From positions 163,220 to 227,219 of IMG/VR virus record IMGVR_UViG_3300045988_175328: DNA of 64,000 bases, one strand, 5' to 3'. The translations under genes and the position numbers were made by a program. Origin of the DNA: a virus. Shown here one piece after another: positions 28,917 through 56,944 of the stretch; position 1 is the first letter of the stretch; each line of letters starts with the position of its first letter. The notes under the pieces are model-generated. The model did no database searches, was not told the DNA's origin, and was given only the letters and a program-made list of their open reading frames with translations.

Positions 28917-28920
28917 TAAT

Positions 28921-28968
28921 AAGGGGTGCCCGAGCGAAGCGAGGGGTTAACGCCCCTTTTATTTTTTT
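28921..28968 (+). terminator. intrinsic terminator whose loop holds the first GA/GAA hairpin unit
   Basis: aaggggtg...cgcccctt stem then tttatttttttc. Confidence 0.7.
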
Positions 28969-29475
28969 CTAATAACCGTCTCCAACGGATCTAGCGAGCG
29001 AAGCGAGCGATTAACGAACCTACTATGTTTAAAGGGCGAGCGAATGCGAGCCCTTGTTAATGGACTTGTTTATATGAGGCGAGCGAAGCGAGCCGTTAAT
29101 GTACCTATCTTAAGTTTAGTAAGGGCGAGCGAAGCGAGCCCATTAAAGAACTAACTTAAAGATAGTAGCGATGCGAACGAAGTGAGCCGAGCTGTTGGTC
29201 CTTACTATAGTATAGTCGGCGAGTGAAACGAGCCGTTATAGTATAGTACTTATATATAGTATTAATAGAAAGAACCCGAAGGGTTATTATGTATAATAGT
29301 ATATATAAGCGAAAAAGGGAGCGTGAGCGACAGAAGGAGAGGCGGCGAACGAAGTGAGCCGTTGTTTGTTTCTTTGTTCCTGTATATATAAGAAAAGACA
29401 AGACAATTTGTTTTCGTCTTTTTGTTATATATAGTATAAAGAAAAAGAATAAATGGGCGCGAGCGGCAGCGAGCG
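28929..29475 (+). repeat. array of about 10 GGC-GA-GC-GAA-GC-GA-GCC hairpin units, each followed by GTTAA-like sequence
   Basis: units at 28929, 28993, 29034, 29078, 29123, 29173, 29217, 29318, 29341, 29455; outer stems covary (ccc/ggg vs ggc/gcc), inner gc/gc vs gt/ac. Confidence 0.8.
28974..28989 (+). repeat. 16-nt direct repeat aaccgtctccaacgga, left copy
   Basis: exact second copy at 43141-43156; both follow a terminator plus T-rich run. Confidence 0.85.
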
Positions 29476-29608
29476 ATTGTTTGTTCTTGTATACTATATA
29501 ATAGTATAAGAAAGACAAGAATTTTTTTGTTTGTCTTATAGTACTATATAGTATTAATAGTAAAAGAAATAAAAAAAAGAATGCCGGAAGTGGTCTTGAA
29601 GAGATTTA

Positions 29609-29636
29609 TGGTAATATAAGTCATGGTACATGACTT
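29609..29636 (+). promoter_or_regulatory. extended -10 (TGgTAATAT) followed by GTA-triloop hairpin, unit 1
   Basis: tggtaatat then aagtcatg-gta-catgactt then aac. Confidence 0.5.
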
Positions 29637-29786
29637 AACCCGTGGGAATTGTGGACGACCCTTCCTTCCGGTGCATGTACCTTTTTTATTTTTTGTCGCT
29701 GGCTCTTATTTAATTTTTGTTCTTGTTATATACTATATATATAATAATAAAAGAAATTAAAATAAGAATCGGCGCCGAGAAAATTT

Positions 29787-29813
29787 TGAGTAATATAAGT
29801 CTCGAAGAGACTT
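29787..29813 (+). promoter_or_regulatory. TGagTAATAT followed by GAA-triloop hairpin, unit 2
   Basis: aagtctc-gaa-gagactt then aac. Confidence 0.5.
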
Positions 29814-30036
29814 AACCGTGAGGTAGAATGGCCGGATGAATTGCTATTGTCTTATACTATATATATAGTAAGACACATAACATATCGCCGCCCGAACCCT
29901 TTAAAAAATTTTATTATTAAATTAATTTATATTTTTTAATTTTTTCGCCCCTGGTATTTTATTATAGTACTATATAGTAATAATATATAAACATAACAAC
30001 ATAATAATAATCGCCCGGGCTTCCTGAAAAAATTTT

Positions 30037-30062
30037 TGGTAATATAAGTCTCGAAGAGACTT
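30037..30062 (+). promoter_or_regulatory. extended -10 (TGgTAATAT) followed by GAA-triloop hairpin, unit 3
   Basis: identical hairpin aagtctc-gaa-gagactt. Confidence 0.5.
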
Positions 30063-30238
30063 AACTCCTTACCCCCGGTATCTTGATCCCGTAGGGGTCT
30101 TATTGTACTGTATCTACACTATAGTACTTACCGAACAAAATGTTTCTTATCTTACTTTTTATTCGGTTGTACATAGGGTTAGACACTTCGGTACATTAAA
30201 AAATTTTTTTTCTAAAAAAATGACTAACGTAACTTTTA

Positions 30239-30262
30239 TGAGTAATATAACTAACGTTAGTT
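30239..30262 (+). promoter_or_regulatory. TGagTAATAT followed by palindrome aactaacgttagtt, unit 4
   Basis: same TAATAT box, different but still palindromic downstream sequence. Confidence 0.45.
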
Positions 30263-30329
30263 TTCTTCGAAGAGAAGTAAGCTGAAACTGCAAGGCTGCC
30301 TGCTCTACGACTGCCCGTACGGTTTTTTA

Positions 30330-30930
30330 TAGAAGAATGGTAGTGTATTAATACTGTACTGTTAGTACTACTAGTACTGTACTACTCGACCCACACCTTT
30401 TGTGGCTGTGCCCTAAAAGGACGGGCCACTCTAATAGTTTTTTTACAGAAATTGTAGTTAATTTGTACTATTTCTAATGCAATATTAATAGTAAAACTGC
30501 ATTGGTTTTTCTGTACTTATAGATATACTAATTGCATTAGTTTTACAGATACAATTGTATTGGTTTTACAGTACCAACAGTTAACTAACACTACAGTACT
30601 TACAGTACTAATAAGACCGTACCAATGGTTTTAATGGTACTATAGTAAGATTGTACCATTGCCAATACAGCACTGCAAATAAAACCGTACTGTTTTGCAG
30701 TACTAAATGGTAATTAAATTGGTATGTTAATACAGTACTAACAAAACTGAACCAATGCTATTAATAGTACTACAGTTAAACTGTATCAACAAGACAGTAC
30801 CTATAGTACTATCAGAACTATAGTTAGATTGTATCAATAAGACAGAACCAATAGAACTATTGAAGCTATAGAAAGACTGTACTAATTAAACTGTACTAAT
30901 AGTATTAACAGTACATATAGTAAAGTAGTA
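30330..30930. repeat. GTAC-rich iteron field (possible origin or protein-binding array)
   Basis: I count 21 GTAC tetramers, mostly as CAGTAC(T/C) or CTGTACT, interleaved with about 10 copies of ACTGTAYCAATGGTTTTA-like repeats. Confidence 0.7.
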
Positions 30931-30994
30931 TTATATTAATAATTGTAATAGTAGTATTAATAATAAGAAGAATAAAGAAAAGAAAAATTTTTTT

Positions 30995-31022
30995 CTTAAG
31001 GGGCAAGCCCCTTAACAACCCC
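30995..31022 (+). repeat. H5 28-nt element, copy 2
   Basis: cttaaggggcaagccccttaacaacccc preceded by A5T7. Confidence 0.9.
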
Positions 31023-31025
31023 AAG

Positions 31026-31053
31026 TTGGTGAAGTTTAAAACAGCAGTAATAT
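31026..31053 (+). promoter_or_regulatory. candidate sigma-A-type promoter
   Basis: TTGGTG, 16-nt spacer, TAATAT. Confidence 0.4.
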
Positions 31054-31059
31054 AAAGAC

Positions 31060-31268
31060 TGTGTTTTTTGTATCACCTCCAATACCGAAACACACATCAT
31101 AATGTTTCCTCCTTTCTAAAATGATGAGAACTGAGAGCTCGGTTGAAACTTAGACCGAGCCTTGGTCTTATCGCGTTTACGCGTAATATACGAGTCCTGT
31201 AAGGACTCGATAACTGGAAACGATGTTAATTTATAGGAATATAGCCGCCCGTTTGGGCGGCTTTTTTT
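31060..31268 (+). ncRNA. candidate small RNA or structured leader (three hairpins + terminator)
   Basis: gctcggt/accgagc, cgcgt/acgcg, cgagtcc/ggactcg stems, then agccgccc-gttt-gggcggct T7 (31243-31268); no ORF. Confidence 0.4.
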
Positions 31269-31289
31269 GTTTTATTTGAGGTGTTATTT

Positions 31290-44189: not shown

Positions 44190-44411
44190 TGAAATACCGT
44201 CAAATTGTTAAAACGGTAGCACATGCTTGTATTAACTATAAATTAAGTCTTCCTATAGACTTTAAATTAATTTTAACAAGAACTTCGTGCATGTTGTATG
44301 CTAAAGGAGAGAATGATGCTACATTTAAAGGTCGACTAATTTTATTGAAATTCAGAACTAACACTCGTGATTTTAATCATGAGATACAGTTTTGGAAATT
44401 AGTAAGCCTGT
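44189..44411 (+). CDS. exon 1 of a small gene interrupted by an IStron
   Basis: ORF 44189..44413; its TAG stop is created by the intron, since the predicted 5' splice site follows T44411. Confidence 0.6.
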
Positions 44412-44815
44412 AGGGAAACTTGCAGGTAGAAATAGCTTTTAGCTATTCAACGAAGAAACTGAATTGCTGGGAACCCCTAAAGCTCAATTAACTACAATAT
44501 AGATTTGAAATATAATCAAGTATGAATGTGGCGAAAGCAGAAAAAATAATTGAGATAAGATATGGTTAAACCCTAAGTCTTAAGATAATGGGCAATCAGC
44601 AGCGAAGCTCCGAATAGGAGAACGTTCAACGACTATTCCTCGTGAGGGAAGTACACCGTAAGCGATTGACGGTGGAAGTGGTGTCGCCTAAGTCGCAATA
44701 GCGATATGGATAAGATATAGTCTGTGCTTATGCGAAAGTATAAGATGCGCGTAATGGCGCTGGTTAGGAATAGCGATCCTGATTGAACGAGACCTCACAA
44801 AACATGGTTCTAAAA
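44412..44815 (+). ncRNA. group I intron catalytic core
   Basis: P1 hairpin 44407-44426 with GAAA loop and U44411-G44422 wobble; P aattgctgggaa 44462-73; Q aatcagcagc 44594-603; R gttcaacgacta 44624-35; S aagatatagtct 44712-23; several GNRA hairpins. Confidence 0.8.
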
Positions 44816-44908
44816 TGTCCTGTAAAAGTTTTACTGAAAAGTTGTTTTTTAGTAAAAGTATGTTATAATAATCTCGTAATATAGTAATTAGAAAGCGAGG
44901 TGATAATA

Positions 44909-46159
44909 ATGTATGTAAATATGAAGCAACAGGTAAAACATCTAACAAAAGAAAAATACAATATCCTAAGAGAATTATGTAGGACTGCTAAGAATTTAAA
45001 AAATGAAGCAATTTATAATATTCGACAACATTATTTTCAAGAAAAACAATACTTGAGATATGAGTCGAATTATCATGAACTAAAGTATTCTGAAAATTAT
45101 AAGCTTTTAAATTCTAATATGGCACAACAAACTCTCAAGGAAGTTGATACAATGTTTAAATCATTCTTTGCTTTGATTAAAATGGCAAAGCAAGGAAAGT
45201 ACAGTTTTAAGCATATACGATTACCTAAGTATCTGCCTAAAAATGGATATTCAAATTTAATCATTGCACAATTTAAAATTAAAGATGGTATTTTAACTAT
45301 TCCAGTTTCTAATGCTTTTAAGGAAAAGCATGATATGAAAATTCAGATCAAAATTCCCAAAGCATTAGAAGGTAAAAAGATTAAACAGATTCAAATTATA
45401 CCTAAATTTAATGCTAGGTTCTTCGAGATTCAATATATATATGAAGTTCAAGAAGAAGATTTAAAATTAGATACCAACAATGCACTGGCTATTGATTTGG
45501 GAGTTAATAATTTGTGTACTTGCGTTACAAACGCTGGTAGATCTTTTATTATCGACGGAAGGAAGTTAAAATCTGTTAATCAATTCTTTAACAAGAATTA
45601 TGCTAAACTACAATCTATTAAAGACAAACAGCGTATCAAAAGACAGACGAAACAACAATATTTAATTTCTCTTAAGAGAAAGAATAGGGTTAACGATTAT
45701 ATCAATAAAACATGTCGATATATCATAAACTATTGCTTATCTAATAATATCGGAACTTTAGTTATTGGTTATAATCAGTCATTTCAATGTAAAACTAATT
45801 TAGGTAGGAGAAACAATCAAATTTTTACTCAATTGCCATTTGGTAAGATTCGAGAAAAATTAGAATATTCGTGCAAACGATATGGTATTAATTATATCTT
45901 ACAAGAAGAATCTTACACTTCTAAAGCTAGTTTTTTTGATAATGATGAGTTACCTATTTATAATGCTGACAATCCACAGGAATATGAGTTCAGTGGAAAG
46001 CGTGTTAAAAGAGGATTATACCAGACTAAAGATGGTTATCTTTTTAATGCAGATTGTAACGGCGCATTAAATATTCTTCGTAAAAGTAGCGTTGTAGACC
46101 TTAGTGTCTTATACAGTAGGGGCGATCTGGACACGCCTAAAAGAATAAGGATCTTTTAA
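44909..46159 (+). CDS. tnpB: TnpB-like RNA-guided endonuclease (IS200/IS605 OrfB family)
   Basis: 416 aa from ATG 44909 (GAGGTG RBS); RuvC triad contexts AIDLGVNN, LQEESYTSK, FNADCNGALNILR; no CxxC zinc-finger pairs. Confidence 0.9.
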   Translation: MYVNMKQQVKHLTKEKYNILRELCRTAKNLKNEAIYNIRQHYFQEKQYLRYESNYHELKYSENYKLLNSNMAQQTLKEVDTMFKSFFALIKMAKQGKYSFKHIRLPKYLPKNGYSNLIIAQFKIKDGILTIPVSNAFKEKHDMKIQIKIPKALEGKKIKQIQIIPKFNARFFEIQYIYEVQEEDLKLDTNNALAIDLGVNNLCTCVTNAGRSFIIDGRKLKSVNQFFNKNYAKLQSIKDKQRIKRQTKQQYLISLKRKNRVNDYINKTCRYIINYCLSNNIGTLVIGYNQSFQCKTNLGRRNNQIFTQLPFGKIREKLEYSCKRYGINYILQEESYTSKASFFDNDELPIYNADNPQEYEFSGKRVKRGLYQTKDGYLFNADCNGALNILRKSSVVDLSVLYSRGDLDTPKRIRIF

Positions 46160-46230
46160 GATCAAACTTCTTAATAAAATAACTTTAAGTTATTTTTAGA
46201 ACCATGTGATTTTAATCATGTGAGGTTCAG
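46040..46230 (+). ncRNA. predicted omega-RNA scaffold / intron 3' segment (5' boundary approximate)
   Basis: by analogy with TnpB systems; agaaccatg (46198-206) and tgtgagg (46219-25) pair with catggttct (44803-11) and cctcaca (44793-99). Confidence 0.4.
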
Positions 46231-46373
46231 TGAATCGAGATATTGATCTTAATGAATATAGCGCTTACGACCAAATTGTGTATAAAACAGTAGAATCATA
46301 TTTAATTAAAAATCAGGAGGCATTCTCTAAGTTTAATACATTAGTCGGCACTATTGAATCTGAAGTAGAATAA
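46231..46373 (+). CDS. exon 2 of the IStron-interrupted gene
   Basis: T44411 + TG46231-32 gives Leu, then NRDIDLNEYSAYDQIVYKTVESYLIKNQEAFSKFNTLVGTIESEVE stop; splice after G46224 would also be in frame. Confidence 0.55.
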
Positions 46374-51299: not shown

Positions 51300-51981
51300 C
51301 TGTTGTATGAATACATTAATCTTCTATTGTAATAAAGAAGATGATAAATCAAAAAGATCTTTAAAAAAATTGTTTAATTCTTTTGTTAAATTAAGAGAAA
51401 AATATAATTCTAATTTACATAAAATGATGTGTGACCAATTTAATAAACAATATGTAATTCCATCCTTTAAAAGAGCTGAACTCGATTATATTTCAGAAAA
51501 CATTTCTGTATTAGAAGAAAGTGATAATGCTTCTTTTATTATGGAAGTTGTTTCAGCATGGATTCCTATTATTAGAAATATGGAACATATTGTAAATATG
51601 TGGAATCAGAATAATACTAATTCTTTGATCAAAGTTGTAGGCATGGCCGAAGAAACTGGCTGTGATGTTTATGTAAACACAGATAAAGAAGGAGATTTTT
51701 TCATTGATCGATACAAATTTGTATTTGTAAAAGAAAATGAAGATGAAGATATTTATTCTGACAGCTTTGCTGCATCTAAAAGAGTTATTTCTAAAAAACT
51801 AAGAGAGTATGGTTATCATTTTTCAGAAGAAATTATTTTTAATACAGACAATGAAGAAAAGCTACAGACTATTGTAAATAGTATTATTGAAAAAGAAGAT
51901 TTAGAATTAATTAGATTCTTTTGTTTTAAATATGAAGAAGAAGATGACTGTCCAGTTACATGGATAAGTCCAAAGGAATAA
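51292..51981 (+). CDS. hypothetical protein
   Basis: 229-aa ORF; N-terminus MANCCMNTLIFYC loosely resembles the MxNWCxNxL start of DUF1281-type proteins (weak). Confidence 0.6.
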   Translation: MANCCMNTLIFYCNKEDDKSKRSLKKLFNSFVKLREKYNSNLHKMMCDQFNKQYVIPSFKRAELDYISENISVLEESDNASFIMEVVSAWIPIIRNMEHIVNMWNQNNTNSLIKVVGMAEETGCDVYVNTDKEGDFFIDRYKFVFVKENEDEDIYSDSFAASKRVISKKLREYGYHFSEEIIFNTDNEEKLQTIVNSIIEKEDLELIRFFCFKYEEEDDCPVTWISPKE

Positions 51982-51983
51982 TC

Positions 51984-52856
51984 ATGAATGTAGGATTTTT
52001 TATATTTGCAGATAATCATAATCGCAAAGAACGAGTTCCTGTCTATAAAGTCTGGAACTTATTAAATAAAGCATATTCTGAGGCTTCCAATAACTGTCAA
52101 GATTTAACATTAAAAGATGCATATCGTGCCATGTTTCCTATTGATAACTGGCACGATATTCTTGTATCCCAAGGAGTCATTGAAACAATTGGAAATGTAA
52201 ATGAAGATTTAGTCGGTTTCGAAATTGTAGTTGAAAGCGACAGTACTGATATTCTAAAAGAATTTGAATTGGCTATGAATCGATATTTTAATATGGCCGG
52301 ACTTAATTTAGAAATTGTTGGTCGAGCTGTTGATTACGATAAAAGAATATCGATGAGTACAGATTACCATCATGTTTATTACAAAGAAGCTTTAATTATT
52401 TCTGGCGAAATAGAAGGAAGTGACTTTTATTGTGACTATGATAATTTGGAACAGGTTCAAAGACTTTTAGTCGATTTTTTAGAATCGGATACTAGATTAA
52501 ATGAAGAAGAAATAGTTACTCATGTAGAAGCTACTGGGTATGATTTAAATGATATGGAAGGTTTAGAAAAAGCCTTCAAAGTTGCTATGAAACATTTTAA
52601 TGTTAATGGTGATTTTAAAATTGAAAAAATTAAAATTGATGAAAGGAAAAAATATACAATGAATTATAAAGCGAAATTTTTAATTGACACTTTAAGTCAA
52701 TCTATCAAAACACTAGAAATGCACGAAGAAAGAAACGGACGAGATTATCTTATTGGTTCCGTTCTTGCAAATTTATATTTGGTACGAAACGATTTTGAAG
52801 ACTATCTTCATGAGGAACATGAAGTTAATCTAATATCTGAAGAAATTCCATTTTAA
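51984..52856 (+). CDS. hypothetical protein
   Basis: 290 aa from ATG 51984 (track ORF starts at 51960). Confidence 0.65.
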   Translation: MNVGFFIFADNHNRKERVPVYKVWNLLNKAYSEASNNCQDLTLKDAYRAMFPIDNWHDILVSQGVIETIGNVNEDLVGFEIVVESDSTDILKEFELAMNRYFNMAGLNLEIVGRAVDYDKRISMSTDYHHVYYKEALIISGEIEGSDFYCDYDNLEQVQRLLVDFLESDTRLNEEEIVTHVEATGYDLNDMEGLEKAFKVAMKHFNVNGDFKIEKIKIDERKKYTMNYKAKFLIDTLSQSIKTLEMHEERNGRDYLIGSVLANLYLVRNDFEDYLHEEHEVNLISEEIPF

Positions 52857-52868
52857 GGGAAATTTATT

Positions 52869-53309
52869 ATGGCTACAGCATCAAGAATTGCAAAATATAT
52901 AGTTAAAGAGGCATTAAAAAGAAAAATGCCAGTTACTAATTTAAAATTACAAAAATTATTATATTTTGTTCAAGGCGTCCATTTGTTTATGCATGAAAAA
53001 GTCGCATTCCTAGATGAAATTATTGCTTGGCAATATGGACCTGTAGTAAAAGATGTTTACTATGAATATTCTATTTATGGAGCAAATGACATTATTCCAA
53101 TCGATAAGAATGAAAAAATAATTTTATCTATGCGATTAAAGAAACTTGTAAGTTTCGTATTAGATGATTTGTTAAGATATTCAGATATTGCATTAGTCAA
53201 AGAAACAAAAAAGGAAGGCTCTCCATGGAGCCAAGTATCTTTAAATGAAGTAATCGACGAAAAAGATATATATGAATATTTCTTAAAGAACTATATACAT
53301 TTTAAATAA
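52869..53309 (+). CDS. Panacea/DUF4065 (SocA/GepA-like) antitoxin-type domain protein
   Basis: 146 aa; TNLKLQKLLYFVQGVHLFMHEKVAFLDEIIAWQYGPVVKDVYYEY matches the KLqKLlYfaq...f.AW.yGPV..~vY signature. Confidence 0.75.
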   Translation: MATASRIAKYIVKEALKRKMPVTNLKLQKLLYFVQGVHLFMHEKVAFLDEIIAWQYGPVVKDVYYEYSIYGANDIIPIDKNEKIILSMRLKKLVSFVLDDLLRYSDIALVKETKKEGSPWSQVSLNEVIDEKDIYEYFLKNYIHFK

Positions 53310-53334
53310 TAATTAATTAAATGAGGGAACAACT

Positions 53335-53658
53335 ATGAGAATGATTAAAATGAAAAAAGAAGTTTTTGAAGCTAAAAAAAGATGTCTTATCACTAAAACT
53401 ATTATCCTAACAAGCGTTTTCTGGCTTTTAATTACACTTACATTTGAATTTTTAAATACTCCAAAATATCATGAGGCATATAAGATTCATACCATTCAAA
53501 ACAATGAAACTGTTTGGGATGTCGCCGATAAATATAGTCATAATTTAGTCGACAAACGAATCTTAGTTAACGAAATCATTCAAGATAATGATCTCGGAAA
53601 AGATGCGATTACGTATAATGGTATGAAACTAATTGTTCGTGAACGTATCTCTAAATAG
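53335..53658 (+). CDS. membrane-anchored LysM-like protein
   Basis: 107 aa; N-terminal TM helix, then YKIHTIQNNETVWDVADKYS...NGMKLIV LysM-like segment. Confidence 0.5.
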   Translation: MRMIKMKKEVFEAKKRCLITKTIILTSVFWLLITLTFEFLNTPKYHEAYKIHTIQNNETVWDVADKYSHNLVDKRILVNEIIQDNDLGKDAITYNGMKLIVRERISK

Positions 53659-53668
53659 AGGTGATATT

Positions 53669-53944
53669 ATGATTATCGAAACAGAAACTAATTTAATTGT
53701 GCCGCCAGGCGAAACAATTAAAGAACAAATGAAGCAAAAGAATATTTCTTTAAAAGAATTAGCTAAAGCTATTGATGAAGATGAAGAACGAACTCAAGAA
53801 TTACTTGAAGGTGATATTCGCATGCAGCGAAAACATATGGAAGGACTAGAGCAAATTCTAGGAATACCATTTAGATTTTGGCGCAATCTTGAAGACAACT
53901 ATCGTAACGAACTAGATGAATGGGAAGATGAGGCCTGGTCATGA
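53669..53944 (+). CDS. HigA/VapI-like XRE-family HTH protein
   Basis: 91 aa from ATG 53669 (GAGGTG RBS); PPGETIKEQMKQKNISLKELAKAI...ILGIPFRFWRNLEDNY. Confidence 0.65.
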   Translation: MIIETETNLIVPPGETIKEQMKQKNISLKELAKAIDEDEERTQELLEGDIRMQRKHMEGLEQILGIPFRFWRNLEDNYRNELDEWEDEAWS

Positions 53945-54396
53945 GTCTTGAAGAAGAATTAAATGCATACAAACTAGATCTTTTAGAGAATACTAAATAC
54001 TTCACGATAGAAGAATTAGCTGATTTGTATGAGAATGGTCAGCTAGATGTCCACTACAATGCAGACAAAACTGAACATTGGACTAATAAAAAACAAGATA
54101 AATTAATTAAAAATATTCTCTTAGGATTTCCGATTCCTACAATCTTCTTACAAGAGAAAGATGGAGAATATCTTGTTATAGATGGGTATAATAGACTTTT
54201 TACTATTTTAAGATTTTTGAATGTAATCGTAGCATGGAATGCACATGTATATAGATTCCCATACAAAGTTGAAATGTATCATCCAAAATTGCCATCTTTT
54301 AAAGAGACAACTTGGGATAATGGCGGCAAAAGACTTTCGAAAAAATTAAAAGAAAAGTTTTTAAATTATCGAATACCAGTATATTTTATAAAATAA
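53941..54396 (+). CDS. short DUF262-like (ParB/Srx-fold) protein without a nuclease domain
   Basis: 151 aa, ATGA overlap with HTH gene; KQDKLIKNILLGFPIPTIFLQEKDGEYLVIDGYNRLFTILRFL resembles the DUF262 DGQQR core. Confidence 0.5.
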   Translation: MSLEEELNAYKLDLLENTKYFTIEELADLYENGQLDVHYNADKTEHWTNKKQDKLIKNILLGFPIPTIFLQEKDGEYLVIDGYNRLFTILRFLNVIVAWNAHVYRFPYKVEMYHPKLPSFKETTWDNGGKRLSKKLKEKFLNYRIPVYFIK

Positions 54397-54423
54397 TTTT
54401 TGTTATTTTTCATTTATTTACTC

Positions 54424-54452
54424 TTGTATTTTTTGTAATATAGGAGTATAAT
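54424..54452 (+). promoter_or_regulatory. candidate sigma-A promoter at the start of the ORF-free region
   Basis: TTGTAT (54424-29), 17-nt spacer, TATAAT (54447-52). Confidence 0.55.
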
Positions 54453-54459
54453 ATTTGTT

Positions 54460-55733
54460 GAATAAATATTGTTTGTAGTTTTATATTATTTTTTTAATTT
54501 TTAGATGTCCCATACGTCTTAAAATCATATTTTATATAATAAAAGACAGTAGTTTAACTATTGTTTCTGTGATTTACAATGAAGAAATACCCCTATGTTT
54601 CTTCTCAATGCAAAACTACAATCCCATCTAAGTTAGGTTAGGATAACGTGACCTAACAGTTCGCTCCAAAATCCTTACACCAGGATGGCTTAGTCTCTAC
54701 AAGAGCTTGCGACTCTTGAATAGTGGACAGGCATGGGAGGGTGTCCTTGTACTTTAATTTTAATTTGTTTTTAGTATTTTAATACTGATTATGTAACAAA
54801 AACGATTTTTATAACAAAAAAACGAATCATTAACACTTTAAAGTACATGTAGGCTATATGTAAGACCTAAAGGGAATACCTGGCTACCTTCTGTAACCGT
54901 ATCTGAAAGCCGGAGAAAGCATTGCTACGGATTCGTCATGTAGTAGCGTTTGCAGTCCTTACCTGGACTTTAAATAGCGGGTGTTGCGAGCCCATGTAAG
55001 CGAAATCAGCAAAGGTACCCGTACTTAGTCTTCCTGAGTACGGATCCTACAAACGGGATGAAGGAACTACTGAATCCCTTATAGTATTACACTGTAATGG
55101 TAATTAGTAAGGTAAACATAAGAAATAGTGTCTCGCAAGCATGAGTTACCGAACGTTGCATTAATATAGCTATATTAGCTGTGAATTGGATCTTTCGCCA
55201 CAGTTTACACTGTAAATGTAGATCTGGAGCTAATATATAGGCGGCCTGTGTTAATGAGTAGTAGCTATGATTAAATGAGTTCGGGGGTATCAACTGGACG
55301 AGCTAATGAAGACGTAAGTCTTTGTTAGTATGTTGAGGTTGGCTTCCGTATGGACGATATCGGAGCCGGATTCCGTTCGATAGGCAAGGTGCGAGAGATC
55401 GTGAACCCTACCTAGCATGTAGAAGTAGAACCTAGACGCATGGTAAGAACGGTTATTATTTTTCTAGCTGTTGTATCTGAATATGTCGTAAGACATTGGA
55501 AGGATATATGCAAAAGCAGTACAGTTGTTAAATAAAACTGGAAGTAGAGATCTAATAAAGTATAGGAAGACGCCTTAGGGCAAAACTTAATTTTTTAATC
55601 CAGTAGGATTAGTCTGCCCAAAAGGAGTTAACTTACCCCCGTACGAAGAATATAAGCTGTTATCTTAAGATAGCTGGCGTAAACTGATTAGATCGGTTTG
55701 TCAGAACTGTCTTAGGATAACAGCTATTTTTTT
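54460..55733 (+). ncRNA. candidate large structured non-coding RNA (one or two transcripts; 5' end uncertain)
   Basis: no + strand ORF of 60 aa or more between 54397 and 55979; many hairpins incl. GNRA loops at 55309-22 (GTAA), 55392-401 (GAGA), 55483-96 (GTAA); terminator at 3' end. Confidence 0.55.
55655..55733 (+). terminator. long-stem intrinsic terminator closing the ORF-free region
   Basis: agctgttatcttaaga (55655-70) pairs with tcttaggataacagct (55710-25), then T7. Confidence 0.7.
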
Positions 55734-55979
55734 ATACTGAAATTGATACTGTAGAACTGATACTTATTATCTGACTTAACTCTAATGGTAACTGCGTCCT
55801 ATTTATATTTAATAAGGCTTTAGATAGGGGGCGTGAAAATAGAGCTGAATCTTTATCAAAAGCAGAGTAATCTCTGCGCGTTGATAATCAGTTAGTATCG
55901 GTAATACAGAATTAAGATAGAATTAGTGCTATGTTTGTAGCTTCGGTAATTTGCAGATACAGAAAGGACAGGACGAGAA

Positions 55980-56414
55980 TTGAGTAAGGCTAAAGAACAA
56001 GAATTAGAACGAGTAATTACAGAGTTATTAGAATGTTATGATTTCGAGGCTAATACCGATCTATTGATTCGAGCCATGAATACAGAATTAGTAGGATTAT
56101 ATGATGATAATGGTGACTCTTTTACTATCGGCAATCTTACAAGAGGTGCTATGCGAGTACTGTTATCTAACTGGGACAAATGGAGAATTACAGAAGAACA
56201 GCCTGAAATTGTAGGGATGTTTGTCATATCAGTTATTAAGAACTATATCGGAATGAGAGCATATGATCCTAGAGCGGCCGAACGAATCAACTTATACATG
56301 CAAATGTTTCTAGCAGAAGATGAAGCAGATGTTTATCAATTACACTTAGATTTCATACTAGGAGTAGACGATTGCGACTGTGAGGAACTAGACGAAGTAG
56401 AGGTGTTACATTAA
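55980..56414 (+). CDS. hypothetical protein, paralogue of next gene
   Basis: 144-aa ORF, TTG start, weak RBS; FTIGNLTRGAMRVL...GMFVISV aligns with LTLGNLIEGALKLA...GMYFLGV. Confidence 0.55.
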   Translation: MSKAKEQELERVITELLECYDFEANTDLLIRAMNTELVGLYDDNGDSFTIGNLTRGAMRVLLSNWDKWRITEEQPEIVGMFVISVIKNYIGMRAYDPRAAERINLYMQMFLAEDEADVYQLHLDFILGVDDCDCEELDEVEVLH

Positions 56415-56491
56415 GATATCATGGCTGCCTCTAGTTCTGAAAGGGAGGAGTCTGCCCAAAATTAAGTATTATTAAAATAGGAGTATTTAAA

Positions 56492-56944
56492 ATGAGTGCC
56501 GATAAAGAGTTAAATATACTCAAGCTAATAAAAGATATCAGTAAAAATGATTTTAGTATTTTACAAGATAAAGATAAAATGGCTCGTTATATGAAAATAA
56601 AATTGCTTGATACAGATGAAGGTGAATCACTTACGCTTGGCAATTTAATAGAAGGAGCCTTAAAACTTGCAAAACGAGATCATAATATCCATCGTCTTAT
56701 GAAACAAGATATGAAAACAGCTGGAATGTATTTTTTAGGTGTCCTTAGCGTTCATGCTAAATTGTATGTTAAAAGAGATCCAGAAACAGATGAAAGATTC
56801 TTCTCTTATATTCATGCATATAAAGCTAAGACTAATGAAGAAATTGATTTCATGAGAGATAATTTTATATTAGGACAAATTAGTGATATTAGTGATGATG
56901 AAATTTTAAATAGAGATGAAATTTTTAATTTAATCAATAGCTAA
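56492..56944 (+). CDS. hypothetical protein, paralogue of previous gene
   Basis: 150-aa ORF, TAGGAG RBS. Confidence 0.7.
   Translation: MSADKELNILKLIKDISKNDFSILQDKDKMARYMKIKLLDTDEGESLTLGNLIEGALKLAKRDHNIHRLMKQDMKTAGMYFLGVLSVHAKLYVKRDPETDERFFSYIHAYKAKTNEEIDFMRDNFILGQISDISDDEILNRDEIFNLINS

Follow-up and report, generated by a model that had tools for sequence, protein, structure and literature searches.

What does a phage encode in a long stretch of DNA that contains no called gene? The question is raised by a gap in a 64,000-nucleotide (nt) stretch of viral DNA (IMG/VR record IMGVR_UViG_3300045988_175328, positions 163,220 to 227,219; referred to here as the window, its first letter being position 1), for which a first-pass annotation made from the letters alone had proposed a large structured RNA. 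The gap runs from the stop codon of a GmrSD_N-type gene, at 54396, to 55980, where the following gene starts. The sequence within it is non-coding, possesses a + strand fold that is kept by compensatory changes and has no match in Rfam. With a probability of roughly 0.75, the segment from approximately 54459 to 55733 on the + strand would be a single gene for one non-coding, highly structured RNA of ~1.27 kilobases (kb), carried by a clade of uncultured phages. The central idea of the first-pass annotation, that of a large structured + strand RNA, is supported by compensatory changes, by conservation in thirteen variants of the locus, by an asymmetry of G-U pairs between the two strands and by the absence of a coding signal.

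A gene-free region and its variants

The listing of open reading frames (ORFs) agrees with the earlier statement that no + strand ORF of 60 amino acids (aa) or more occurs between 54397 and 55979, and the longest ORF in any frame is one of 68 aa on the - strand. In every one of the related contigs the gap likewise holds no called gene. Enrichment in GC relative to the surroundings had also been remarked upon and is borne out by windowed values of 0.34-0.45 over 54500-55800; the values are 0.19-0.20 immediately upstream and 0.24-0.36 across neighbouring genes, the window as a whole having 0.337. The description of the genome as having almost no other spacers was overstated: ten further + strand ORF-free gaps of at least 250 nt were found in the window, one of them 2.4 kb long (28917-31280).

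The clade from which the window derives consists of uncultured phages with genomes of ~220 kb. Exact matches to the two flanking proteins placed the window in metagenome-assembled contigs of 222-227 kb, and variants of the locus were reached via neighbouring proteins. These related phage-like contigs carry tail, ClpP and MCM-type genes. Thirteen distinct versions of the locus were recovered, being 86-97% identical to one another. Nine are full-length (the window, L001, L012, L030, L026, L034, L062, L061 and L060), at 86-97% identity to the window; the other four (L031, L033, L027 and L063), termed lineage B, have only 54397-55163 in common with the window. Compared with the 86-97% identity of the RNA among variants, one adjacent gene drops as low as 61% amino-acid identity and the flanks to 64-80% nucleotide identity. 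The RNA is conserved equally to, or better than, its neighbouring genes.

No DNA match to the region, or to the 24 kb surrounding it, was found among GenBank phages, where similarity was confined to remote resemblance of tail proteins. No relative was found in IMG/VR via the flanking proteins, and protein searches with three neighbouring genes gave matches confined to the same clade. Scans of IMG/VR, JGI metagenomes and GTDB genomes with exact seeds (conserved 16-23-mers) returned seed-only matches in unrelated, mostly coding, GC-rich DNA, the best nhmmer extension of which (L046, 11.6 bits) falls inside a 464-aa ORF; distant relatives were possibly overlooked, as these searches were exact-seed scans. 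Paralogues of the RNA elsewhere in the window were detected neither by blastn nor by nhmmer.

Conserved secondary structure and lack of coding signal

An RNAalifold consensus structure of the nine full-length variants comprises 367 pairs in 48 helices, with 98.6% of cells forming standard pairs. Twenty-two of the pairs (50 cells) are altered on both sides, compared with 7.6±1.9 pairs (15±4 cells) in 500 column shuffles, none of which (0/500) reaches the observed value. Controls in which the register was slid by one to three columns gave 0-4 pairs changed on both sides and 36-43% pairing, and an alignment of six sequences gave a picture similar to that of the nine. When the 5' domain (see below) was analysed alone in eleven variants, 98.1% of cells were paired and fifteen compensatory pairs were counted, against 6.1±1.7 after shuffling (0/500) and 0-4 after sliding. 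Covariation among homologous regions of related phages, to which the first-pass annotation had looked for support, is present above the level of the controls. Several of the exchanges are visible by eye, such as CCCGTACT/AGTACGG to CCCATACT/AGTATGG, GGGAT/ATCCC to GAGAC/GTCTC, and TTGC/GCAA to TTGT/ACAA to TTAC/GTAA. An all-against-all covariation screen with six to nine sequences was too noisy for standalone use.

Read on the + strand, 98.4% of the consensus pairs are standard; on the - strand this falls to 87.6%, because 261 G-U cells become A·C. This G-U pattern fixes the + strand. Three GNRA tetraloops read solely in the + orientation, as had been pointed out. Folding energy alone does not settle the strand, since the z-score against shuffles of the - strand (-6.2) is comparable to that of the + strand (-5.4, 54820-55735).

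Variable sites are without three-base periodicity (66/53/50 over the three phases), and no variant has an ATG-initiated ORF of more than 51 aa. The sole ORF shared among variants (31 aa, 55440-55535) lies in the invariant core of the RNA, and the changes within it are mostly non-synonymous. A coding or pseudogene reading was rejected. A degraded gene or short ORF had been named as what might otherwise explain the region; neither a frame-related substitution pattern nor an ORF remnant common to the variants was found.

Domain organisation of the predicted RNA

The consensus fold can be divided into three domains. The 5' domain (~600 nt, 54473-55078, + strand) is present in all thirteen variants (13/13), with 23.6% of its sites variable. 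It is held together by the long-range helices 54609-24/54929-42, 54659-67/54912-20, 54687-91/54907-11, 54730-45/54882-98 and 54746-57/54838-49, and it contains a near-invariant stretch of 34 nt (GTAACCGTATCTGAAAGCCGGAGAAAGCATTGCT, 54893-54926) that is identical in eleven variants (A11) and differs by one change in L060. The middle domain (55079-55270) is a long irregular hairpin closed by 55079-90/55258-70, with 30.8% variable sites and eight pairs altered on both sides (helices 22-29). Its tip (55159-55256) is hypervariable: the sequences are nearly wholly different among variants, four of which have an insertion of 15 nt, and are still paired.

The 3' core (~365 nt, 55279-55644) is closed by a G5:C5 helix formed by GUUCGGGGGUA (55279-89) and UACCCCCGUAC (55634-44). 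Only 7.5% of its sites vary, compared with 23.6% and 30.8% in the other two domains. It possesses three GNRA hairpins, with loops GUAA at 55314-17 (on a 12-bp stem), GAGA or GGGA at 55395-98 and GUAA at 55488-91, as well as a hairpin with a AUGGACGAUAU motif (55337-55367). Over helices 30-46, 11 of the 13 variable paired positions still pair via G-U wobble (binomial p ~0.01 against an expectation of 50%, by hand calculation).

Most of the hairpins listed in the first-pass annotation were recovered, namely gttaggt/acctaac at 54632-57, ccgtact/agtacgg at 55019-43, aagac-GTAA-gtctt at 55309-22, cga-GAGA-tcg at 55392-401, atgtc-GTAA-gacat at 55483-96 and aatcc-agta-ggatt nested within gggca/tgccc at 55579-619. 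The pair gaagaaa/tttcttc was misplaced, its true position being 54582-54604 rather than 54561-84.

Predicted transcript ends and the case for one RNA

A promoter-like sequence, TTGTAT-17 nt-TATAAT, matches exactly at 54424-54452 on the + strand, with a predicted start at ~54459, and is conserved in L001, L026, L033 and L063. The promoter that had been annotated is present in letter, but its -35 hexamer agrees with TTGACA at only 3/6 positions, which is why the site is missing from the list produced by a consensus scan. At the other end, inverted repeat I1 (55655-88/55692-725, with 3 nt between its arms) forms a terminal hairpin of 32-34 base pairs (bp) that is followed by T7 (55727-33), and the long-stem candidate terminator described earlier is located at 55655-55733 as given. 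In the consensus this hairpin is helix 48, with 32 pairs, 100% of them paired, and four wobble-compatible changes; lineage B retains an AT-rich homologue of it with a T8 run. From its sequence, we infer that the hairpin with T7 is an intrinsic terminator and the 3' end.

The 5' leader is tied into the fold by helix P1 (15 bp, 54473-54487/54607-54621, + strand; inverted repeat I2), which encloses a leader hairpin (54503-19), an indel-prone hairpin (54541-69) and the hairpin at 54582-54604. On alignment A7, 99% of P1 cells are paired, and three pairs are changed on both sides in L026 (G-C to A-U, U-A to G-C and U-A to A-U). The leader and partner sequences of L063 are identical to those of L026; both strands of P1 differ from the window at several positions, with the 15-bp helix kept. 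As the covarying P1 begins at 54473, the transcript would start upstream of this position, which fits the promoter at 54424-52.

A split at 54760-90 into transcripts of 0.3 kb and 0.9 kb had been suggested on account of a weak internal terminator. The stretch in question (54758-54837) is AT-rich and indel-prone, variants differing in it by deletions of 18-23 nt and by insertions of 3-5 nt, and is enclosed by an 11-bp helix (54746-57/54838-49, helix 11) that is invariant in 9/9 full-length variants. A covarying pairing connects 54882-98 with the loop of the hairpin that had been taken for a terminator (pair 162-324 is A-U, G-C or G-U), and L027 adds a further compensatory change to this pairing. 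The suggested split is contradicted by these helices, in which the flanks pair across the AT-rich stretch (54746-57/54838-49 and 54730-45/54882-98); in the modelled structure the stretch appears as a variable loop of one fold and not as an intergenic gap. In the consensus scan, no promoter-like site was listed on the + strand from 54488 to 55742, nor any terminator-like site within the region, and the linkers between domains are a few nucleotides only. Two features favour a single RNA of ~1.27 kb over two transcripts: the leader is part of P1, and the AT-rich stretch is spanned by helices 10 and 11.

Insertions and loss of the 3' half

The locus is interrupted in some members of the clade. Blastn breakpoints and junction sequences place a TnpB (IS200/IS605-type) insertion of 1.43 kb at 55065-55070, after GGAACTAC, in L027/L028/L029 and in L060. 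The inserted TnpB carries the Pfam domains OrfB_IS605 and Cas12f1-like_TNB. In L060 the element stands after window position 55070 in an otherwise full-length RNA gene; in L027 an insertion at the same site is combined with the 3' replacement of lineage B. The breakpoint of lineage B is at 55163/55164, and 4/13 variants are without the 3' half. The replacement consists, in order, of an AT-rich hairpin with T5, a promoter-like site, a hairpin in which the AUGGACGAUAU motif is retained, a solo omega-RNA region of TnpB (RAGATH-18), the hairpin at 55579-619 as an inverted copy and the AT-rich terminal hairpin. In these variants the 5' domain persists without the 3' core, with changes still being compensated. 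Since the 3' half is missing from four variants and a TnpB element interrupts the gene in L027 and L060, the RNA is dispensable in part of the clade, and its function is accessory and not essential.

Elements without an ORF were identified at the locus as well. A second type of ORF-less element, akin to the 3' end of the window's own TnpB, directly follows the -10 box of L012 and L034 and occupies a site within the leader of L033, and ORF-less TnpB 3' ends are found in the leader of both L033 and L061. Two types of such ends were located at L012 10472-10680, L034 6925-7105, L033 6990-7150, L031 2740-2945, L033 7955-8160 and L063 3600-3810. One of the types is recognised as RAGATH-18, and the sites correspond to the promoter, the leader or the replaced 3' half of the RNA. 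In both L012 and L034 the promoter region is also present as an inverted copy, which flanks the insertion that follows the -10 box.

Comparison with known RNA families

A whole-window gathering scan with Rfam 15 gave no match in the region. Permissive scans (E<=10) of three pieces of 1.7 kb, 0.73 kb and 0.49 kb (54300-56000, 54560-55290 and 55255-55740) gave chance matches only (RT-16, MIR8742, Tombus_IRE, GAIT, rliB and IS009; E>=2). The whole-window negatives need care, because speed filters caused the gathering run to miss a real group I intron in the window (44402-44744). The same Rfam library provided positive controls in this intron, which reaches 55.9 bits (gathering threshold 50, E 6e-13) in an E-value scan of 2.3 kb, and in RAGATH-18 and group I introns of related loci.

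Several candidates were rejected. No match to the group I intron model RF00028 was found in the region, whereas true introns in the same genomes score 55.9 and 67-86 bits; nor is the RNA an intron splitting a gene, since both flanking genes are complete. RAGATH-18 (RF03064) omega RNA gave no match in 54300-56000, its matches being confined to TnpB 3' ends and the lineage-B replacement of other variants. Kinship with TnpB omega RNAs was rejected for the RNA of the window, which has no similarity to either TnpB element or its ends, and holds for the insertions in other variants. ARAGORN detected no transfer RNA (tRNA) or transfer-messenger RNA (tmRNA) in the 64-kb window, and RNase P, 6S, signal recognition particle RNA, tRNA, tmRNA and other housekeeping RNAs had no ARAGORN or Rfam match in the region. 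Tandem, iteron and dispersed repeat arrays (CRISPR-like or ToxI-like) are absent from the RNA region.

GOLLD and ROOL are large phage-borne RNAs of unknown function that form homo-oligomeric RNA-only nanocages; many GOLLD members exceed 800 nt, with a 3' region that is conserved and a 5' region that varies, and ROOL has been reported to be non-essential (PMC12286853). The RNA described here resembles GOLLD (RF01998) in being encoded by a phage, in its very large multi-domain ornate fold without an associated ORF, and in having a 3' region that is conserved and a 5' region that is less so (7.5% against 23.6%/30.8% variable sites), a likeness of layout only and not of homology. It differs in giving no covariance-model match at E<=10, in its greater length of ~1.27 kb and in having been found only in one uncultured phage clade. 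GOLLD is often located beside tRNA genes or arrays in phage or prophage; no tRNA gene was detected by ARAGORN in the 64-kb window. With ROOL (RF03087) it shares the character of a large structured RNA borne by phage or prophage without a known protein partner, and its dispensability in some variants recalls the non-essential nature of ROOL; it has no match to the model, does not lie beside a tRNA island and is roughly twice as long as ROOL, whose length is ~580 nt. The first-pass annotation had raised membership of GOLLD or ROOL, and this was not upheld, no Rfam family scoring better than E = 2 in the region-level scans.

Group I introns and IStrons (RF00028 with TnpB) likewise combine a large catalytic-type fold with occurrence in the same phage genomes, but the present RNA is without an RF00028 signal, interrupts no gene and has no sequence similarity to the intron of the window. 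Omega RNAs are about 150-250 nt long and abut a TnpB gene or its remnant. Like the RNA described here, they (RAGATH-18 among them) are structured non-coding RNAs of the same genomes, with solo copies inside or beside the locus in several variants; the RNA differs from them in having neither a RAGATH-18 match nor similarity to either omega-RNA type. It is of the kind known as large ornate phage non-coding RNAs, belongs to none of the families of that kind and, at ~1.27 kb, would be the largest of them.

Proposed function and alternative explanations

If the locus is one gene, transcription would proceed from TTGTAT-17-TATAAT and end at the long hairpin with U7. The RNA would act through its structure, as a folded particle and not as an antisense RNA, a leader or a messenger RNA; the invariant 3' core may be the functional surface, serving a tertiary fold or the binding of a partner, and the 5' domain may be a structural scaffold able to persist alone. 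By analogy with GOLLD and ROOL, the mode of action considered the likeliest, although its probability is still rather low, is that of an abundant architectural RNA made during infection, either RNA-only or as the scaffold of a ribonucleoprotein (RNP). Other modes, such as RNP scaffold, host-factor decoy or ribozyme, may apply. A bolder suggestion, put forward tentatively, is that the RNA is the first of a new class of giant, ornate RNAs in phages, with no kinship to GOLLD, ROOL or OLE. At ~1.27 kb it would then exceed in size every other structured non-ribosomal RNA known in bacterial viruses, and its invariant 3' core would form either a catalytic centre or a higher-order assembly made of RNA only, for use in infection, for example against host defence or translation.

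A number of points weigh against a single structured RNA gene. The promoter, the terminator and the transcript ends are predictions from sequence. The fold was derived by RNAalifold from the same alignments that were used for the pair counts, which favours it over the controls. The thirteen variants represent one narrow phage clade (>=86% identity) and are recombination mosaics, with few independent substitution events and with several of the compensatory cells inherited together. Three apparently compensatory pairs in the hairpin at 54582-604 (H1) are a register shift of a hairpin shortened in L026 and L063, and not point substitutions. The 3' core is without any fully compensatory change, and its low diversity may reflect a recent recombinational sweep instead of strong selection. 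Covarying helices are lacking between the 5' domain on one side and the middle and 3' domains on the other, and processing into two RNAs may occur. The gene is also dispensable, as seen from the four variants without a 3' half and from the TnpB-split L027 and L060, and exact-seed scans, by which distant relatives could have been missed, found no homologue outside the phage clade.

Of the other explanations, two or more independent RNAs, or an RNA with a long 5' leader, would account for the missing inter-domain covariation and for lineage B, where the 5' part alone (to 55163) is followed by an AT-rich hairpin and T5, so that the 5' domain can exist by itself. This arrangement, whether as a 5'-domain RNA of ~600 nt with a 3' RNA of ~650 nt or as a 0.3/0.9-kb pair, is considered unlikely. 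GGACA..UGUCC and the U-rich tract after it (54723-70) do resemble a weak terminator, but helices 10 and 11 bridge 54730-57 with 54838-98, which argues against the 0.3/0.9-kb version; for any version, the consensus scan offers no internal start or stop (no + strand promoter-like site in 54488-55742), and the linkers are short. A DNA-level element, such as a replication origin or a packaging or recombination site with hairpins acting in DNA, is scarcely credible. The region is large and non-coding, has many inverted repeats and belongs to a phage genome, and its - strand also folds better than shuffles, all of which would be in keeping with such an element, but the 261 G-U cells are tolerated on the + strand only (98.4% compared with 87.6%), the GNRA loops, the promoter-like site and the hairpin with its T-run all share one orientation, iterons and tandem repeats are lacking, and a repeat-rich region at 28.9-31.3 kb is far more origin-like.

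Decay of DNA at a recombination hotspot into a sequence that has no function of its own, whether from a protein gene or by the build-up of IS200/IS605 (TnpB/IStron) remnants, has very little probability. The hotspot itself is real: ORF-less TnpB 3' ends have been inserted at the promoter of L012 and L034 and into the leader of L033 and L061, and also occur within the lineage-B replacement, full TnpB elements are found in L027 and L060, and the GC content is unlike that of the rest of the genome. The region, however, shows no similarity to TnpB elements, their ends or the intron and no RAGATH-18 or intron match; its substitutions follow no frame and its variants share no ORF remnant; and junk would not retain 98.6% pairing and 22 compensatory pairs, or exceed adjacent genes in conservation. 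Just as improbable is a very divergent GOLLD, ROOL, OLE, group I or II intron, RNase P or HEARO/omega RNA that escaped the covariance models. The phage origin, the size, the GNRA-rich ornate fold and the conserved 3' and variable 5' regions do recall GOLLD (PMC12286853), and the whole-window gathering run did miss a real group I intron through its speed filters. Against this, the permissive scans of the region returned unrelated small families only (best E = 2), no tRNA gene is nearby, ~1.27 kb is larger than GOLLD, and the flanking genes are complete.

Neighbouring genes and other features of the window

The block upstream of the RNA gene (51960-54396) encodes a 298-aa protein, a SocA/Panacea antitoxin-domain protein, a LysM-like membrane protein, an Xre-type helix-turn-helix (HTH) protein and a 151-aa protein that consists of the N-terminal DUF262/GmrSD_N domain only (best PADLOC match NsnA). 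As a whole, the block has the look of an accessory island of toxin-antitoxin or defence type. The GmrSD_N-type ORF (53941-54396) ends at its own stop codon; the downstream ORF (55980-56414), beside which a paralogue lies, begins at a start of its own, and both flanking genes are called complete in all contigs. The HTH/DUF262-like pair noted earlier beside the RNA corresponds to the Xre-type HTH and GmrSD_N/DUF262 N-terminal-domain proteins; the functional link that had been put forward for it found no support, and in several variants a 132-aa ORF and ORF-less transposon remnants sit between the pair and the RNA. Taken together, the neighbours (the Panacea-domain, Xre-type HTH and GmrSD_N/DUF262 proteins and two acidic paralogues) offer no functional lead for the RNA.

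The two genes downstream (55980-56944), which encode 144 aa and 150 aa, are paralogues whose products end in acidic C-termini and match nothing in Pfam, PHROG or PADLOC, and among variants they evolve far faster (61% amino-acid identity) than the adjoining RNA. Between the RNA and the first of them (55743-55979), a promoter-like TTGATA-16-TATTAT (10/12) stands directly after the RNA terminator and is followed by a conserved leader of ~200 nt with hairpins (e.g. GCAGAGTAATCTCTGC, 55862-77) that precedes the 144-aa gene. This leader is limited to variants that retain the 3' core of the RNA; in lineage B the ribosome-binding site directly adjoins the terminal hairpin.

Elsewhere in the window, 44402-46250 is IStron-like, with the group I intron RF00028 at 44402-44744 immediately upstream of a TnpB ORF at 44900-46159, and an omega-RNA-like 3' end at ~46090-46245. 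The arrangement of intron and TnpB (RF00028, 67-86 bits) was also identified at L033 3002-4573, L027 3003-4574 and L012 6726-8300, in each case adjoining a shortened homologue of the gene at 51960-52856. Interruption of this homologue is suggested by its length of only 133-227 aa in the three variants, compared with 290 aa. The 2.4-kb non-coding region at 28917-31280 is rich in repeats and without an Rfam match, and could be a replication origin or regulatory array. It contains at least eight copies of the hairpin GCGAGCGAAGCGAGC (28931-29490), three units of ~40 nt of the form GGTAATATAAGTC..GACTTAAC (at about 29594, 29777 and 30026) and an iteron-like array with a period of 48 nt (30586-30914).

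Significance

To our knowledge, only a handful of non-coding RNAs of more than 500 nt have been described from bacteria or phages. New large RNA classes have become valuable test cases since the RNA-only nanocages of GOLLD and ROOL were found, and an RNA of ~1.27 kb with three domains, an almost frozen core of 365 nt and no relative in the databases would stretch the known size range. Its function is directly testable through natural 'experiments', in which the 3' half is lost or replaced, the gene is split by TnpB or the tip of the middle hairpin is hypervariable. IS200/IS605 (TnpB/IStron) elements repeatedly target what would be a highly structured RNA gene in these phages, which bears on how such elements choose their sites.

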